This document shows positions 28,403-36,424 of a stretch of 64,000 nucleotides of DNA, piece by piece (position 1 is the stretch's first letter; each line of letters starts with the position of its first letter). The stretch lies in the NCBI RefSeq assembly GCF_048403405.1, contig NZ_CP183129.1; one strand, 5' to 3'. This DNA comes from Escherichia coli (lineage in GTDB: Bacteria; Pseudomonadota; Gammaproteobacteria; Enterobacterales; Enterobacteriaceae). The position numbers and the translations under genes were made by a program. Under the pieces are notes generated by a model. That model ran no database searches, was not told the origin of the DNA, and was given only the letters and a program-made list of their open reading frames with translations.

Positions 28403-28520
28403 AACCGTTTACGGGATTTTTAAATCCCGCTTTCGCCTGTTTTGTGCGCGCTTCATATATCGCGGCGCGTTTTTTGCTCATTTACGGGATTTGTGAATCC
28501 CGTTTCTGTCTGTTTTTTGT
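28403..28520. repeat. Two ~40-bp direct repeats, each with an internal palindrome (candidate parC-like centromere/operator)
   Basis: TTTACGGGATTT(T/G)T(A/G)AATCCCG...CTGTTTT occurs at 28403-28445 and 28477-28520, upstream of the ParM-like start and overlapping the 3' end of gene A. Confidence 0.45.
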
Positions 28521-31293
28521 TTCCACTGGTCAGGCCAGTCCTCAGCAGGTTTGCTTTGCGGCGGGCGCGTTCAGTGGTTTCTCTGATTCTCTGTGCGTGC
28601 TCTGCGTCACGAATGGCGCGCAGCATGTCAGAAAGCACGGTAACGGGTGTTTTCATGGTGTTCTGGACCTGCTGAAGTGTGGATGCCAGGCGTGCGGCGG
28701 CTTCGGGGTCTGATGCCCCGAGCTGTGCCAGATAGCTGGAGACCGGGTTATGGCGGATCTCCGTGCTGCTTACGCCGTGATTACGGCTCAGGCGCTGCCA
28801 GAGCTGCGTGATTCGGCTGTCCGGGCGGGCATCCGGTTTGCGTACAATTTCAAATCCCTGCGGTGCAATGATGCTGCCGTCAACGTACAGACTGCCGCCC
28901 CGTAACAGGTGCTGCATCTGTTGTTCACCGATATGCAGGCCGAGAGATTCAGCAGACTCCCGCCATTCTTTAGCGAGTAATTCGTGGTTATCAGGCAAAG
29001 GCCGCTGCTGTTTGCGGCTCTGTGTCCAGCTCTGCATTTCATCGCTGCTGTTTTTTGCCTGTTTGTCACGAAGCGAACGCATCAGCGCCCGGCGTTCGTG
29101 TCGTTTCAGTGAGCGCATCCATTCGTTCACTTCAACGCCGTTAGGGAGCTGCGGCCACGGTGCTGGCCGTTCTTCCGGCTGTTCTGTCCCGTTGTTGTCC
29201 GTTTCCTGTACACGGGGACAGTTATTGCCACGAGTCCAAGGGGCGGCAGGGCCGCCCTGAAGGTCAAAACCATTTTCGCGGGCGCTGTCTTCCGCTTCCG
29301 GTTTGCGTCTTACCAGCTTCCAGTTATCCGGATGCGTGCACACACGGGAGGATTCCCCGATGAGTGGTGACCAGATCCCGTAAATCTGTACGCTCTGTTC
29401 GCCGTAATCGTTCATCTCATCGGCGAGGTCGTAGGCGGTGCGAATCAGGTAGTCTTTGCGTGGAACAAGTACGCCGCCCTGTTTCTCTATGTAGGTGGCA
29501 AAACATCCGGCATCAGCGGCGGCAAGAACCGCATCCATTGCGTCATCCTTCAGCCGTTGCGGGCCTTCCGGGTTGCGTGCCATCTGGCTGGCAAGGCGGC
29601 GCAGTTCACGCCATACCTGGCGGGAGGGGATGCCAAAGAACTGGAACTGGCGGACCCGGTGAAGGCGCGCCCAGCCGATGGCGCGTTCCACGCTCTCGGC
29701 CATTGATTTTCCGGTTTCGTGGTCAACGCGTGGCTTGCCCGTTTTCGGGTCGATGCCATCCACGGCACGGCTGTCCAGGTTTTTCCCGATGTAGGTGGCG
29801 ATGTAGCTGGTCGGTGTGCCTTTTGAGCCGTCGACGTACTCCGCCTTAAAGCGTGGGGTAATATCATCACCCAGCTCGTGACGATCTTCCTGAATGGCAA
29901 TATCGCGGGTGTGGGACACAATAGTGTCGATTTCTTCCGGATGAGCAAAGACCATCATATGCCAGTGCACGGTGCCGTCATGGTGAGGCTCCACCGTGCG
30001 GATGCCATACCAGCGCAGGCCGTCGCGGTTCAGTTTCTTGCGGACCGCCGCAAAAAACGTGTTAACCAGGTAATCGCTGGAGTCGCGCATGGTGGCCCCG
30101 TTCCATTTGGGATTCGGATGACCGTTCTCTGTTGTGGCGTGGTATTTTGACGGGCAGGTGACAGTCAGAAACACCGCTCTGTCGCCACGGGCTTCGGCCA
30201 GAAGTTCCAGCCCCTTCATGGTGGCCATCATTTCTGCCTTACGGTGAACCGGGTTACTTACTCCCGCGTAATACACTGTCTCGAGATCAATCGTGAACCC
30301 ATCTTCGTTTTCCAGCATGAAACTTTTCAGGAAATCGCGTGTTTTCTCGCGCTGTGCGCGAAACTCGCTTAATGCGTCCTGGCTCAGATAGGGCGATGTT
30401 TTTCTGGAAACCAGACAGGCGGCGCGGAGTTGTTCTTCTCTCCACTCGCAACGTAACAGCCACAGTTTGCGTTTCCACCATTCCGCACAGGTCAGGCGAA
30501 GGATTGCGCCCGGCAGCAGCTCCGTGTCCGGTTCGTTCCTCCGGTCTTTATCTGTTGTCAGTGCGTCATAATGTGGAGGCATGATGTGCAGGTGTAACGC
30601 CATGCGGGCCAGCATCTGATACGCCTTCAGCGTTACATCCATGGTCAGTTCGCCATCGGTCGCGCCAAAGCCATCGCAGAGTTTTTCGAAGGTGCTGCTG
30701 AACATCGCCGCCGTCATGGTGGCCAGCGTCTGTATCTGGTGTTTGTTGAGCTGCGGCAGGTAAAGCAAATCGTCCAGGCGTTCGCGTCCGGCAAGGGAGC
30801 GATAACCAGGTGTCAGCCAGCGCCCGTCAGTGCGATCCAGACGTTCGAATATTTTGCGCAGGGTTCCGCGTGCATAGCGTTCCGCCTGCCAGGTCTTTTT
30901 GCCTTTCTGACGATCGGCTTCCTGCTTCTTGCGCAGGAAAGAGAGGTGGCGGCTCAGAGGTTCTCGCAGATAACCGGGAAGCGCCTTCAGTGTGGCAAAG
31001 GCACGGGCTACCGGGTCTTGTTCTGTTGCCCGGCGCTTACTGATGATGCTCTGTGCCAGCTTTTCACGCTGTCCGGCTTCCTCAAGGGATGCCATGAGTT
31101 TTTTACCCATGGCGGATTGTGCGAAAAAGGCTTCTTCCTTCGCTTCCTGTTCTTCCTGTGCCCTTTTGTCCGCCTCAAGGTAGTAACGGATGGCGCGTTG
31201 CAGGTCGGTTTCAGTTTCCTGCCTGCGCTCCGTAAATCTGGCCGGATCAATAGCTGGTCGTGGTTCATTCCAGCTCCATGCAAACGCACTCAT
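28453..31293 (-). CDS. A: Replication initiation protein A (rolling-circle HUH endonuclease)
   Basis: Long ORF with HWHMMVF HUH-like motif and P2 gpA-like region; start trimmed to MSAFAWS, abutting the upstream gene stop. Confidence 0.85.
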   Translation of the reverse strand: MSAFAWSWNEPRPAIDPARFTERRQETETDLQRAIRYYLEADKRAQEEQEAKEEAFFAQSAMGKKLMASLEEAGQREKLAQSIISKRRATEQDPVARAFATLKALPGYLREPLSRHLSFLRKKQEADRQKGKKTWQAERYARGTLRKIFERLDRTDGRWLTPGYRSLAGRERLDDLLYLPQLNKHQIQTLATMTAAMFSSTFEKLCDGFGATDGELTMDVTLKAYQMLARMALHLHIMPPHYDALTTDKDRRNEPDTELLPGAILRLTCAEWWKRKLWLLRCEWREEQLRAACLVSRKTSPYLSQDALSEFRAQREKTRDFLKSFMLENEDGFTIDLETVYYAGVSNPVHRKAEMMATMKGLELLAEARGDRAVFLTVTCPSKYHATTENGHPNPKWNGATMRDSSDYLVNTFFAAVRKKLNRDGLRWYGIRTVEPHHDGTVHWHMMVFAHPEEIDTIVSHTRDIAIQEDRHELGDDITPRFKAEYVDGSKGTPTSYIATYIGKNLDSRAVDGIDPKTGKPRVDHETGKSMAESVERAIGWARLHRVRQFQFFGIPSRQVWRELRRLASQMARNPEGPQRLKDDAMDAVLAAADAGCFATYIEKQGGVLVPRKDYLIRTAYDLADEMNDYGEQSVQIYGIWSPLIGESSRVCTHPDNWKLVRRKPEAEDSARENGFDLQGGPAAPWTRGNNCPRVQETDNNGTEQPEERPAPWPQLPNGVEVNEWMRSLKRHERRALMRSLRDKQAKNSSDEMQSWTQSRKQQRPLPDNHELLAKEWRESAESLGLHIGEQQMQHLLRGGSLYVDGSIIAPQGFEIVRKPDARPDSRITQLWQRLSRNHGVSSTEIRHNPVSSYLAQLGASDPEAAARLASTLQQVQNTMKTPVTVLSDMLRAIRDAEHAQRIRETTERARRKANLLRTGLTSGNKKQTETGFTNPVNEQKTRRDI

Positions 31294-31679
31294 GGCTGGT
31301 ATCCCGTCACGCGCTGCCACTCCTGCGAGAAGAGGGCGGAAAGGCGGTTAAATTCAGCGGTGTATTCACTCAGCGAGGCACACCCGCCAGCAGTGCGATG
31401 CGCCAGCATTGCTGCAAATACGGAGGCCGGAGAGTCGTAATACGCCAGCAGTGATTCGCCGTGCGGTGTCAGGCAGTGCAACGCCAGTCCGTGTGGTGTG
31501 AAGTCCACGCGGTAGCAGTCGTCTACTGTGAAATAAAGGGTGTCTGCATTCTCCGGTTTTGTGGTGCGTGCTCTGTTGTCACGACCACGGATGTAGAGAT
31601 CAAATAACCCCTGAAGAACGGGAGCCAGACGGGTGTCCTGTGTGCGCACCCATCTTGTGAAGTCATGAGCGTCAATCAT
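31290..31679 (-). CDS. Hypothetical early-region protein (position of P2 B / orf80-83)
   Basis: 129-aa ORF ending at the A start. Confidence 0.55.
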   Translation of the reverse strand: MIDAHDFTRWVRTQDTRLAPVLQGLFDLYIRGRDNRARTTKPENADTLYFTVDDCYRVDFTPHGLALHCLTPHGESLLAYYDSPASVFAAMLAHRTAGGCASLSEYTAEFNRLSALFSQEWQRVTGYQP

Positions 31680-31751
31680 GCTGCAATTCTCTTTACTACA
31701 GATGTGCGAAGGCCTCCCGCCGCAAGGTGCAGAAAAGGCCCGGAACAGGAA

Positions 31752-31982
31752 TTAATGGAGTTTGTTTTGCTGCTGGATGAGCTGTTGAAGCTCGTGCAGA
31801 TCATCCGCCAGATAGCTGAAAACAGAGGCGGAATAAATGTTTGATAGTGCGTGGCTGCGCTCATGCAGCATATTGATGTGCATGATTTGCGCGACGCGTG
31901 ATGCGCGGGAAAGTCTGCGGTTGATTTCAGTCTGGATGTGACGACGCTCCGCGATAGCGCGGTGCTGTTTGCGGTCTGCCAT
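31752..31982 (-). CDS. Hypothetical small protein
   Basis: 76-aa ORF in the early operon; no family recognised. Confidence 0.4.
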   Translation of the reverse strand: MADRKQHRAIAERRHIQTEINRRLSRASRVAQIMHINMLHERSHALSNIYSASVFSYLADDLHELQQLIQQQNKLH

Positions 31983-32161
31983 GGTGTGGCCTCTTTGCTC
32001 GGTGATAGAAATAACTCACCATCCAGAGTTGAGAATCTCGGGGTGGCGAGACGTACAGGGTTCTCAACACCGGAGAGCAAAGAATCCGGCCCGACCGAAG
32101 TCGGCCCCGTACGCCCCGCCATAATTCTGACGCGAAAAAGACGTGGCAATACAGTACGCAC

Positions 32162-32186
32162 AAAAAAACCGCTTGCGCGGTTATGC
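32162..32186 (-). terminator. Intrinsic terminator on minus strand
   Basis: Minus-strand hairpin AACCGC-GCAA-GCGGTT followed by T7. Confidence 0.45.
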
Positions 32187-32304
32187 GCTTTGCTCTGTAT
32201 CGGGTTGAGAATCCCGGCACCCGTTTTATGAGGTGCAGCGGAAATGTAACCTGACCGATTGAGGCATGGCAAGCGGTTTTTTTGTGTGTGCATGTTCTGG
32301 TTTC

Positions 32305-32604: not shown

Positions 32605-32846
32605 GCTCTGGCTTCCTTCAGTAGCTGGTTAAACATGTTGGTAAGTGGATTGCCGCACCCGAACGGCATCGGGTTTATCTGGTAAGAAAAGCGACCGCCT
32701 GTTTTGCGCTCTTTTCTTATGACTGAACCGCTGCGCCAGAGTCGGCGTAACTCCGCATTAATGGCTGTGGTTGGGGTATTCAGTGCTGCGGCGATTTCTC
32801 CACCGCTACACCCCGGATTGGCAGCGATATAATCCAGAATGGTCAT
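32601..32846 (-). CDS. Hypothetical early-region protein (possible winged-helix DNA-binding)
   Basis: 81-aa ORF, operon-style overlaps on both sides. Confidence 0.55.
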   Translation of the reverse strand: MTILDYIAANPGCSGGEIAAALNTPTTAINAELRRLWRSGSVIRKERKTGGRFSYQINPMPFGCGNPLTNMFNQLLKEARA

Positions 32847-33046
32847 CTGCGTGACTCCTGTACCTGTCGGATAAGGTTCACCTGCACCACATTCGTGGCG
32901 CAGAAGTAAGTGCCGTCAGTGAGATAGATGTGATGTGCATCCTTTTCTGAACGGTGTTTGTCGATTGTGGTAATCAGGCGTTCGTCGACTTCGTATTCAC
33001 GTCCTCTGGAGGTAAAACGAACGACAGGAAAATGCTTAATTGCCAT
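32843..33046 (-). CDS. Hypothetical early-region protein
   Basis: 67-aa ORF. Confidence 0.5.
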   Translation of the reverse strand: MAIKHFPVVRFTSRGREYEVDERLITTIDKHRSEKDAHHIYLTDGTYFCATNVVQVNLIRQVQESRR

Positions 33047-33132
33047 TACGCCTCCTTGGCGTATGCGAATACCTCCGCGAATGCGGATTGTTTTTACATT
33101 TTCTTATTTAACCTGTGGTTTTATTTGCTCTG

Positions 33133-33246
33133 TTATTCGCCAGTGAAAAAGCGTTCAATCTTTTTTACTGAATGAATAATTCGCATAATCCCAATGGCGC
33201 AGGCCACAGAAATAATCAGAACAAGCCATGAGATAAATATACTCAT
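33133..33246 (-). CDS. Small hydrophobic peptide (37 aa), translationally coupled
   Basis: Manual translation MSIFISWLVLIISVACAIGIMRIIHSVKKIERFFTGE; its ATG overlaps the TGA stop of the upstream 80-aa gene (ATGA); below ORF-track cutoff. Confidence 0.4.
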   Translation of the reverse strand: MSIFISWLVLIISVACAIGIMRIIHSVKKIERFFTGE

Positions 33247-33485
33247 GCGATATTCCCCAGCTTATACGGTTCAATATGTTCCCCGCATTCTGCGGCACAG
33301 ATTAGCTCGGAAAGTTCGTTAAGTGCATCCAGATCATCAGCGTAAAAAGCCACGTCATACAGACTCCGGATTGCCCTGGTCAATGAGTCACGGGCTGCAC
33401 GTTCAGCATGAGAGCCTGATGCACTTAAGCGAAAATAAAAACGCTCAAGTGCTTTGTTGATGAGTGTTTTATATTCTTTGCCCAT
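33243..33485 (-). CDS. Hypothetical early-region protein
   Basis: 80-aa ORF. Confidence 0.55.
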   Translation of the reverse strand: MGKEYKTLINKALERFYFRLSASGSHAERAARDSLTRAIRSLYDVAFYADDLDALNELSELICAAECGEHIEPYKLGNIA

Positions 33486-34136: not shown

Positions 34137-34388
34137 GTTAAAGACTCTGTACAGATTTAATTATTCCGGCATAGCGGCCGAACTCAAAATATTTGCGATT
34201 AAATCGCATCGCATTGTTTTCACGTTGTGCGGACTGCTGGTTCATTTTCGTTTGCCTCCGCACATGAGAATTACGCCGCTTAAGAGGTAACCGAAGTTAA
34301 TTGATAGTATTACAATTAACATAAGGTCCAATTTGTCCATGCCACACATAATTACCCTCATTGCAGTAGTTGTGGTTTATCAGGTTTC

Positions 34389-34595
34389 TCACCCGATAAA
34401 CCAGATAACAAACGCTATAAACATCGCCCCAATAGCTGCCGGGAAAAGCCCTTTGGTATAAGCGGCGATATATTCAATGCTGAGTTCAATAAAGCGTTCT
34501 TCATGTCCCGTTAACTTACGAAACAAATAGATCGCTATTACGCCTATCTCAATAAAAACAAGGGTCAGAATGGCGCTGATGATATGGCTGGTCAT
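34389..34595 (-). CDS. Small membrane protein (two transmembrane helices)
   Basis: 68 aa, hydrophobic; immediately downstream of cox. Confidence 0.5.
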   Translation of the reverse strand: MTSHIISAILTLVFIEIGVIAIYLFRKLTGHEERFIELSIEYIAAYTKGLFPAAIGAMFIAFVIWFIG

Positions 34596-34601
34596 TTATG
34601 A

Positions 34602-34889
34602 CTAAAGCCCCAGCCACAACAACCATGCATCGCGGCGTTCTTTCGGTTGCTCAAAAAACGCTTTGCGCATGCCTTCGTTAAATGCTGGCAGATATACCCA
34701 GTTTTCTGATGCACGCGTCTTTACTGAACCTGGTTTCACAAAGTCAATTGTCGGTAGCTTTGCTGCGTCAATCATGGTTCTGACTGTGGATTCCTTGCGG
34801 CCGATCATCTTGGCGAATAGTTGATATGGCACCGCTTCAAGTGGATATGGTGCTACCTGAATGAAGCCCCCAAGCTCTGATTCGCTCAT
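34602..34889 (-). CDS. cox: Cox (excisionase / early-promoter repressor)
   Basis: 95 aa; ...PYQLFAKMIG...WVYLPA...WLLWLGL resembles P2 Cox; divergent from C. Confidence 0.8.
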   Translation of the reverse strand: MSESELGGFIQVAPYPLEAVPYQLFAKMIGRKESTVRTMIDAAKLPTIDFVKPGSVKTRASENWVYLPAFNEGMRKAFFEQPKERRDAWLLWLGL

Positions 34890-34954
34890 TGTGGTAATCT
34901 CCCTAATTCGTTCGAATGGCTCAAAATGGCTTATATCGGCTTATTTGAGTGTTT

Positions 34955-35010
34955 TTATGTTTGTGCCCGATGTGGCATGTTGCGATGGAGGATATGCCCG
35001 ATATGGCATC
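34955..35010. promoter_or_regulatory. Immunity switch region with direct-repeat operator candidates
   Basis: GTGCCCGATGTGGCATG and ATGCCCGATATGGCATC direct repeats about 32 bp apart between divergent cox and C (P2 C binds direct repeats). Confidence 0.4.
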
Positions 35011-35323
35011 TTTGTCAAGCATGGGTGAAAAATTTCGCCTGATTCGTGAAGCAGAAGGTATGACCCGCCAGGAGTTTGCGGATTGTGTTGGGCTGCCTTA
35101 TGGGACGGTAACTAACTATGAGGTGAGGGGGAAGCAAGTAACAGAGGGTGCCTTACTTAAGGTTACGAAACACCCTAAATTTAAGAAATATGCTTATTGG
35201 TTATCAACAGATGAAACGATGCCGGAGGTTGGGCAAATTTCTCCGGCTCTCTCTCTTGATGGTTCCTGCAATTCGGAGGGAGATCGTGTTTCAACCGAAA
35301 CAATCCAAAAATTATCCCGCTGA
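35003..35323 (+). CDS. C: Immunity repressor C (helix-turn-helix)
   Basis: ...MTRQEFADCVGLPYGTVTNYE... helix-turn-helix region as in P2 C; start ambiguous among 35003, 35021 or upstream Met codons. Confidence 0.8.
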   Translation: MASLSSMGEKFRLIREAEGMTRQEFADCVGLPYGTVTNYEVRGKQVTEGALLKVTKHPKFKKYAYWLSTDETMPEVGQISPALSLDGSCNSEGDRVSTETIQKLSR

Positions 35324-35419
35324 GGCCAGAAAACTGGTTAGACCTGCTTTTTGTCTGGTCTGATTATTGCTGGAAAGAGGCTGGAGAAATTGTAGAGCGG
35401 TTCATTGGAGGGCTTCGCA

Positions 35420-36424
35420 ATGTCGATTAAGAAGCTCGAAGATGGTCGTTATTTGCTGGACATCAGGCCGAACGGACGCAAGGGAAAGCGCGTGCGTAAG
35501 GTATTTGACAAAAAATCGGTAGCGGTGGCCACTGAACGCTACATCATGGCGAACGCTGAAAAGCGGGAATATATACAGGGCTACCGTGATCGTCGAACGC
35601 TAAATGATTTGCTTGAGTTGTGGTGGATGTATCACGGCCAGCACAGGCGTAAGGCAGAAGAAGACCGAAAACAACTGCGCAACATAATCAATGAGCTTGG
35701 CGCTGATATGCAGGCTGTGGATCTTGATAAGCTAAAAATTATCGCGTGGCGTTCTCAAAAGATAGCTGATGGATTGAAACCGTCATCTGCTAACAGATAC
35801 ATGAATCGGTTATCCGGAATGTTTACCGTACTGAAGAAAATAGGCCTCTGGGATGCAGAACATCCGGTAAGGGGAATTTCTATTCTTTATGTATCTCCAC
35901 GAGAAATGGCTTTCCTGTCCCAGAAGGAAGTGGCGTTATTGCTCGATACACTGGAGGGCGATTACTGGCGTGTTGCGCTTTTGTGTTTAAGCACGGGGGC
36001 GCGCTGGAGTGAAGCCTGTAAGCTTCGTGGTGAACAGATAGTTCATAACCGTGTAACGTTTCTTGAAACCAAAAATGGCCGAAAGAGAACAGTGCCAATT
36101 TCGCAGGCAGTTTGTGAGGCGATCAAAACCAGAGAAACAGGCGGCTTGTTTGAGGTGAAGTACCGGGAATTCTGCTTGGCGCTGAAAAGAGTTAAGCCCG
36201 ATTTGCCAAAAGGCCAGGCTGCACATGTGCTGCGGCATACGTTCGCCAGCCATTTTGTGATGAACGGAGGAAACATTATTGCGCTTCAGAAGATTCTTGG
36301 CCACGCAACCATTCAGCAAACAATGGCATATGCACATTTTGCACCGGATTACCTGCAGGATGCGGTGGCCCTTAATCCGCTGAAAGGTGGCGTGAGTGTC
36401 CACGCAGTGTCCACGGGGGATTAA
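35420..36424 (+). CDS. int: Tyrosine integrase (P2 Int-like)
   Basis: MSIKKLEDGRYLLDIRPNGRKGKRVRKVFDKK...LSTGARWSEA...HVLRHTFASHF...MAYAHFAPDYLQDA closely parallels P2 Int. Confidence 0.9.
   Translation: MSIKKLEDGRYLLDIRPNGRKGKRVRKVFDKKSVAVATERYIMANAEKREYIQGYRDRRTLNDLLELWWMYHGQHRRKAEEDRKQLRNIINELGADMQAVDLDKLKIIAWRSQKIADGLKPSSANRYMNRLSGMFTVLKKIGLWDAEHPVRGISILYVSPREMAFLSQKEVALLLDTLEGDYWRVALLCLSTGARWSEACKLRGEQIVHNRVTFLETKNGRKRTVPISQAVCEAIKTRETGGLFEVKYREFCLALKRVKPDLPKGQAAHVLRHTFASHFVMNGGNIIALQKILGHATIQQTMAYAHFAPDYLQDAVALNPLKGGVSVHAVSTGD

Follow-up and report, generated by a model that had tools for sequence, protein, structure and literature searches.

Phage 186 has two small, non-essential host-interference genes in its early operon: fil, whose product of 75 aa blocks cell division, and dhr, whose product of 66 aa inhibits host replication. 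The pair closes the first block of that operon, immediately ahead of a structured RNA (tR1), and in this sense the two are positional analogues of the small membrane protein gene described here. Homology to Fil, Dhr or the P2 protein Orf78 was rejected, as the translations show no similarity, and 186 was absent from the results of a tblastn search with the peptide against all phage records at E ≤ 10. A hydrophobic segment is lacking in Dhr, while Fil has a C-terminal GFLIIRIVHFVI stretch but no N-terminal transmembrane helix like that of the peptide. The early lytic operon of lambda also encodes small non-essential host-directed peptides, namely CIII, an inhibitor of FtsH, and Kil, a division inhibitor. 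Unlike the peptide, however, CIII and Kil are not transmembrane proteins, and they have no sequence relationship to it.

Single-helix membrane proteins provide a second set of comparisons. The small single-pass membrane modulators SidA of Caulobacter and Blr, MgtS and AcrZ of Escherichia coli are about 30–50 aa long, have one transmembrane helix and bind a larger membrane protein. They are like the peptide in size and in their single helix but without homology, and they are chromosomal stress-response genes rather than phage early genes. A likeness between the transmembrane core of the peptide and Blr reached 16.5 bits and was dismissed as a matter of composition only. The type I toxins TisB, DinQ, Hok/Gef and Ldr and the prophage-borne BsrG, TxpA and YonT are also small hydrophobic single-helix peptides of the inner membrane (PMC12648545, a review). 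A type I toxin gene is transcribed from a promoter of its own, with a structured 5′ UTR, and is paired with an antisense RNA antitoxin, whereas the peptide gene is translationally coupled within an operon and has no evident antisense RNA.

The gene and its annotation

The gene lies in a stretch of E. coli DNA of 64,000 nucleotides (the window). Its product, MSIFISWLVLIISVACAIGIMRIIHSVKKIERFFTGE, is 37 aa long, and its start codon overlaps the stop codon of an 80-aa gene upstream. The features of this region are the following:

33133..33246, minus strand: 37-aa small membrane protein gene (P88 gp07 / WP_000021656.1 family), with ATG, 37 codons and TAA
33243..33485, minus strand: DUF4754 gene, the coupled upstream gene, encoding an all-helical protein of 80 aa (Pfam PF15946, E = 5e-54)
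33243..33246, minus strand: ATGA overlap of the DUF4754 TGA stop with the peptide ATG, in the context …ATCGCATGAGT…
33253..33258, minus strand: Shine-Dalgarno-like GGGGAA within the DUF4754 coding sequence, 6 nt 5′ of the peptide ATG
33184..33240, minus strand: predicted transmembrane segment, codons 3–21, IFISWLVLIISVACAIGIM, from hydropathy and invariant columns
33136..33183, minus strand: basic amphipathic tail, predicted to be cytoplasmic, codons 22–37, RIIHSVKKIERFFTGE, with four K/R and the A6 and T5 runs

The first-pass annotation had described the ORF as unannotated, which is wrong, since RefSeq, phage P88 and UniRef already carry it. In E. coli CRE1540 (NZ_CP019051.1), which is 100% identical to the window in this region, the ORF is BVL39_RS28905 / WP_000021656.1. 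Diverged copies are annotated in other RefSeq genomes as well, and the RefSeq entries of the family include WP_000021655.1 and WP_000021668.1. In P88 the ORF is gp07, a ‘membrane protein’ (YP_009113050.1) that is 100% identical to the product in the window; further phage records label it “putative membrane protein”, and the UniRef label is ‘Prophage membrane protein’. A public protein collection has it on more than 1000 contigs of E. coli, Shigella and Salmonella. PGAP and the phage annotators arrived at the gene independently of each other. P88 gp07 and the RefSeq and UniRef records represent the identical gene, in the same position after DUF4754 and with the same ATGA overlap, and are annotation-only entries. 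The ORF is not annotated in the phage records of ΦSM (OR565851), NC_049344 and NC_049341, and the product of the ΦSM ORF is 100% identical to the peptide in the window. A literature search found no paper that mentions the family accessions, DUF4754, DUF4761 or the peptide sequence. The gene is already annotated but was never characterised, and in kind it is one of the small phage-encoded single-pass membrane peptides. What the analysis mainly does is to confirm a short hypothetical gene of existing annotations as real and subject to selection; its family, its predicted topology and its conserved RNA neighbor are documented below.

Start site and predicted topology

The purine motif upstream of the peptide start has an anti-Shine-Dalgarno duplex energy of −5.5 kcal/mol in the window, compared to an operon background mean of −1.5. 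Most deep relatives reach −6.5 to −8.5 kcal/mol, and two lineages have −3.1. The motif is kept although the C-terminus of DUF4754, which it overlaps, has diverged in amino acids.

Residues 3–21 of the peptide have a mean Kyte-Doolittle value of 2.68. The N-terminal flank consists of two uncharged residues with zero K/R, and the C-terminal flank has four K/R. An AlphaFold2 model, built from a small family alignment, consists of one continuous helix from residue 2 to 35 with a pLDDT of 90. The predicted topology is that of a protein with its N-terminus out, a transmembrane helix at about residues 3–21 and a basic amphipathic C-terminal helix in the cytoplasm, the tail being placed there by the positive-inside rule. 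In the window peptide, the single predicted N-terminal transmembrane helix contains the S-W motif and is flanked by a basic residue next to the membrane. Hydropathy, charges, predicted helix and the ATGA junction all agree with the original description of a single-helix membrane peptide whose start overlaps the stop of the 80-aa gene.

Evidence for a real coding gene

As 5 kb of the region contain 80 ORFs of 25 aa or more, the mere presence of a 37-codon ORF is not above chance. The case for a gene comes from its evolution. Among 86 close loci, 77 have the 37-aa ORF, in eight a frameshifted tail makes the product 45 aa long, and in one the frame is shifted early; the first 33 codons are open in 85. 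A frame disrupted in relatives is what the first-pass annotation had said would count against the gene; with 85 of the 86 close loci intact, the ORF passed this test. Variable sites are distributed 12/8/23 over the three codon positions (42 distinct alleles; chi-square p = 0.015).

In the peptide frame, pN/pS is 0.24, compared to 0.14 for the neighboring DUF4754 gene. Four of the five other frames have values of 1.15–1.65. The fifth, an antisense frame, has 0.33, a low value that is expected because its third positions are in common with those of the peptide frame. An overlapping 47-aa ORF in an alternative frame (33155..33298) was rejected as non-coding, as both shifted sense frames have pN/pS within 1.15–1.65.

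Deeper comparisons gave the same picture. Pairwise dN/dS of the peptide gene is 0.12–0.49, with Fisher p down to 5e-10; synonymous sites are saturated (pS 0.5–0.9) versus a pN of 0.13–0.30. In the deep relatives the peptide is 54–68% identical versus 26–40% for DUF4754, although the composition of hydrophobic segments partly inflates the peptide figures. The ATGA junction is kept in all 110 loci that could be parsed, including those in which DUF4754 is only 26–40% identical. The ORF is therefore very probably a real, translated small membrane protein gene.

Family and variation

The peptide had zero matching models in Pfam, PHROGs, NCBIfam and PADLOC, and its best match among the PDB sequences (E = 2.4) is not significant. 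A profile searched exhaustively against 1.84 billion cluster representatives matched only 18, all of them members of the peptide family or its fragments and frameshifts, with E down to 2e-19. When one genome for each of 100,044 species was scanned, the peptide was found only in Escherichia albertii. Within E. coli, the 1.25-kb region is present in 1367 of 5426 complete genomes, or about a quarter, which places the peptide among the commoner uncharacterised small membrane proteins of the species, and a diverged 41-aa type, MSVFLSWVILIISVLMAIGIMRIIEALKNIESLFTGEERRK, is found in a further 23. As far as these sequence searches reach, this is a tiny orphan family whose members all come from P88-like (Xuanwuvirus, Peduoviridae) prophages of Escherichia, Shigella, Salmonella and Citrobacter.

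Residues M1, S6, W7, L10, G19, I23, I24, K28, I30, E31 and F34 are invariant in the main family, which has a conserved K-x-I-E-x-x-F motif in the tail. A Salmonella relative in the same ATGA-coupled position encodes a 50-aa peptide, MNCGIPVSVCFSWTVFALSIIAAIAIVRLWRAISKPDK…, in which just the S-W…A-I-x-I-V-R transmembrane core is retained, followed by an unrelated tail. Phage PhiR44_2 matches the window segment base for base except that one T is absent from the T5 run, in codons 33–34, which leads to a 45-aa product ending in …ERFSLANNRANKTTG (L118 401-538). The tail has two homopolymer runs where frameshift variants recur:

33145-33153, minus strand: T5 run, frameshift hot spot
about 33159-33164, minus strand: A6 run (codons 28–29), frameshift hot spot

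Tail-shifted forms are found on several backgrounds, at both the T5 and the A6 run, and make up about 10% of the E. coli copies. These frameshifts may have arisen by neutral decay or as sequencing errors, or they may switch the tail by slippage. In phage Chuche, there is a stop at codon 31 of the peptide.

The retention of the core, with the tail swapped in Salmonella and frameshifted in about 10% of copies, suggests that the transmembrane helix is the functional part. The extreme C-terminus appears to be dispensable or variable, and the helix to be the constrained part of the protein. Because of the altered tails in about 10% of copies, the one early frameshift and the one stop at codon 31, the gene is at least partly dispensable.

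The early operon

The surrounding genes are those of a P2-family prophage integrated beside pdxB. The closest named phages are PhiR44_2, Xuanwuvirus P884B11, Citrobacter phage ΦSM and P88, all of which are Peduoviridae of the genus Xuanwuvirus. The layout of the region matches that of the Pe early operon of P2 and the pR operon of 186:

35405–36424, plus strand: integrase
34949–35323, plus strand: HTH repressor
34602–34889, minus strand: Cox-family gene, divergent from the repressor
34389-34595, minus strand: another small membrane protein gene directly after cox, whose 68-aa product has two hydrophobic segments (phrog_14475)
following the 68-aa ORF, in order: DUF4761, a 95-aa gene, DUF4754, the 37-aa ORF, the 67-aa gene
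32843..33046, minus strand: 67-aa gene, next in the operon after the peptide gene (phrog_3459), with the strong Shine-Dalgarno sequence AAGGAGG
following the 67-aa gene, in order: a MarR-type winged-helix gene, an Ead/Ea22-like gene, the “derepression” gene, a 129-aa gene, gpA
31752-31982: ‘derepression protein’ gene
28453–31320: gpA replication endonuclease

The placement of the gene in an early operon, as originally proposed, is well supported by synteny with P2 and 186. From this gene order, we infer that the gene would be on the transcript of the Pe/cox early lytic operon. DUF4761 comes directly after cox in the simplest relatives. A consensus scan found no promoter-like site adjoining the peptide gene, and no promoter is conserved across relatives upstream of the block from DUF4761 to the peptide gene. 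An internal promoter for this block was considered and rejected, as the upstream stretch is a mosaic with no conserved promoter. With a repressor-controlled lytic operon and neither a promoter-like site nor a conserved promoter, the gene should be silent in the lysogen.

The stretch between cox and DUF4761 is variable in several ways. The 68-aa membrane protein gene after cox is present in ΦSM and Chuche and absent from P88. In the window, it is followed by a 250-nt non-coding gap (34137-34388, minus strand), within which a hairpin at 34194-34213 is terminator-like on both strands. Many relatives (for example, the loci L087, L099, L104 and L110) have reverse-oriented genes between cox and DUF4761, which raises the question of how transcription from Pe gets to the block in those cases. 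At one locus (L105 1-795, GCA_900536625.1), the DUF4761–DUF4754–peptide block lies beside a Mu-type transposase gene instead of int, C and cox, a neighborhood that suggests an insertion or a hybrid element.

Proposed function

Family, profile and PDB searches found no homology between the peptide and any characterised protein. The best explanation overall, which has about an even chance of being correct, is that it is a single-pass protein of the inner membrane that would be made early in the lytic cycle and work as an accessory modulator. In outline, ribosomes that finish DUF4754 would reinitiate at the overlapping ATGA, aided by the Shine-Dalgarno-like motif, and the peptide would insert into the inner membrane after induction or infection. 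Its conserved core (S6-W7…L10…A17-x-G19…R22) would then make helix-helix contacts with a membrane protein partner. Rather than forming pores, the peptide would modulate host physiology in the course of lytic development, as a non-essential accessory protein. Helix-helix recognition would fit better than a nonspecific pore, given that small and polar residues of the helix are conserved, as is the basic juxtamembrane residue. That the modulation is mediated by the transmembrane helix is a tentative reading of these features. If the target is a host membrane machine, the peptide would join the few early “host-takeover” peptides of phages as a transmembrane-acting member, and would also be a compact probe for that machine. 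A more specific and quite speculative version would make the peptide a transmembrane ‘plug’ on such an inner-membrane machine (e.g., the FtsH/HflKC protease or a divisome component), which would set the lysis-lysogeny outcome or arrest division early after induction of a P88-type prophage, and which, together with the hairpin, would close the constant first block of the operon before a variable cargo slot.

An alternative to such a modulator is that the peptide acts on its neighbor, serving as a membrane anchor or partner in a complex with DUF4754, a soluble helical protein that would dock on the amphipathic tail at the inner membrane. The two genes occur side by side in every case, and their 4-nt overlap in 110 of 110 parsable loci persists even where DUF4754 is 26–40% identical. 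The AlphaFold2 model of DUF4754 (pLDDT 90) has helices at residues 4–48 and 52–66, and a small helical protein of this sort could conceivably pack against an amphipathic helix. A fold search with this model gave generic helical bundles and designed proteins and nothing at E ≤ 0.001, and DUF4754 has no informative sequence neighbor. However, tight gene packing is the rule across the operon, and the two genes recombine independently: between loci L104 and L105 the peptides are 100% identical and the DUF4754 alleles 42% identical, while between L095 and L105 DUF4754 is 94% identical and the peptides 73%. The tail that would do the docking is unrelated in Salmonella and frameshifted in PhiR44_2, where that one base is the only difference in the region. 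The anchoring function is therefore unlikely, and an obligatory, allele-specific complex of the peptide with DUF4754 is likewise possible but not favored.

Comparison of L104, L105 and L095 also places a recombination breakpoint at the 3′ end of DUF4754, with identical peptide-plus-hairpin segments joined to 42%-identical alleles. Apparent fusions of DUF4754 to the peptide (matches of 103–128 aa) were discarded as frameshift read-throughs in other frames, mostly from raw-read assemblies.

Another possibility is that the peptide is a membrane-damaging toxin, akin to a type I toxin or a holin, that oligomerises and depolarises the inner membrane early in lytic growth. In its size, its single hydrophobic helix and its charged C-terminus, it does resemble TisB, DinQ, Hok-type toxins and class III holins (PMC12648545). 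However, no promoter of its own, long 5′ UTR or signature of an antisense RNA is evident for the gene. It does not look like an independent transcription unit, as its start overlaps the upstream stop and no promoter-like site adjoins it in the consensus scan. There is no promoter-like site on the opposite strand near the ORF, and Rfam was blank over the ORF, although a novel small RNA could escape such a search. The sole terminator-like site on the opposite strand is outside the ORF, and its wobble variants fit the sense strand only. Because of the operon coupling and the lack of antisense-RNA signals, membership among the type I toxins fails. A transmembrane helix followed by a charged C-terminal tail, as in holins, is present but not specific to them, and the gene is not in a lysis cassette but in the early operon, between cox and replication gene A. 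Furthermore, the conserved polar and small residues and the tail motif K-x-I-E-x-x-F suggest specific contacts, and early depolarisation of the host would hurt the phage’s own replication. A toxin of this kind is thus an improbable identity for the peptide.

The first-pass annotation had named host takeover and exclusion as possible roles, and of the two, exclusion is less likely. It would have the prophage make the peptide as a superinfection-exclusion or lysogenic-conversion factor that protects the lysogen, and small prophage membrane proteins of such a kind do exist. However, the gene is located within the C-repressed Pe operon, downstream of cox, with neither an adjoining promoter-like site nor a conserved promoter upstream of the block. 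No PADLOC defence model was matched, and the conversion genes of P2 (tin and others) are located elsewhere, as separate units. An exclusion function is accordingly very unlikely.

The downstream hairpin and other RNA features

Just beyond the peptide gene is a conserved RNA element:

33072..33087, minus strand (sense): RNA hairpin UCCGC-AUUC-GCGGA (33074–33087) followed by GG, 45 nt 3′ of the peptide stop

The hairpin is kept in all 115 related loci, including those with diverged flanks, with 98.9% of cells paired. A large sub-lineage has UCCGU-AUUA-ACGGA, a compensatory change from C:G to U:A. Rarer variants have G·U or U·G pairs, which would be mismatched on the opposite strand. A terminator-like call on that strand was therefore rejected as evidence for an antisense terminator, since the wobble variants fit only the sense strand. 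The hairpin is unique within the window and not a repeated element, and it is absent from the early regions of both P2 and 186, so that it is not a feature common to either of those phages. In contrast to tR1 of 186, it has no U-tract on the sense strand and is thus not a canonical terminator. Candidate roles for it are in mRNA processing or stability, in factor-dependent termination or in protein binding.

Whatever gene comes next starts 25–35 nt 3′ of the hairpin: the 67-aa gene in the window and a 137-aa gene, a 92-aa gene or others elsewhere. Since different genes follow at this distance, the hairpin marks the edge of a variable gene slot. Positions 33047-33073 of the window were compared to L087 2946-3696, L104 3206-3956 and L114 2967-3727. 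In relatives, the slot contains a 137-aa gene, sometimes together with a 109-aa gene, or genes of 92, 83 and 70 aa, or others. The slot of the window is empty, so that the 67-aa gene comes directly.

In the window, the last codons of the peptide gene can pair with sequence just past the hairpin, but this long-range helix was rejected, as it is only 72% paired and was not recovered by RNAalifold. That the amino acids are irrelevant, the ORF being a chance one or acting in cis (translation through it either keeping ribosomes on the mRNA or modulating the hairpin and the next gene), is hardly credible: short ORFs are common here, the conserved hairpin is 45 nt downstream and the pairing beyond it can form in the window, but the constraint is on amino acids and specific to the frame, the stop is too distant from the hairpin for a terminating ribosome to get to it, and the helix with its 72% pairing was absent from the RNAalifold result.

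Two more RNA elements were found further along the operon. Rfam matches above the gathering score place a C4 antisense RNA at 32039-32126 (minus strand, 78.5 bits) and the Hfq-binding RNA isrK at 32162-32236 (minus strand, 63.1 bits), within a gap that has no other annotation, immediately 5′ of the ‘derepression protein’ gene. A 205-aa ORF that overlaps both matches (31676..32293) is probably spurious. The layout recalls that of the P1 immI or Gifsy-1 isrK-type antirepressor control modules, here in a P2-family prophage.
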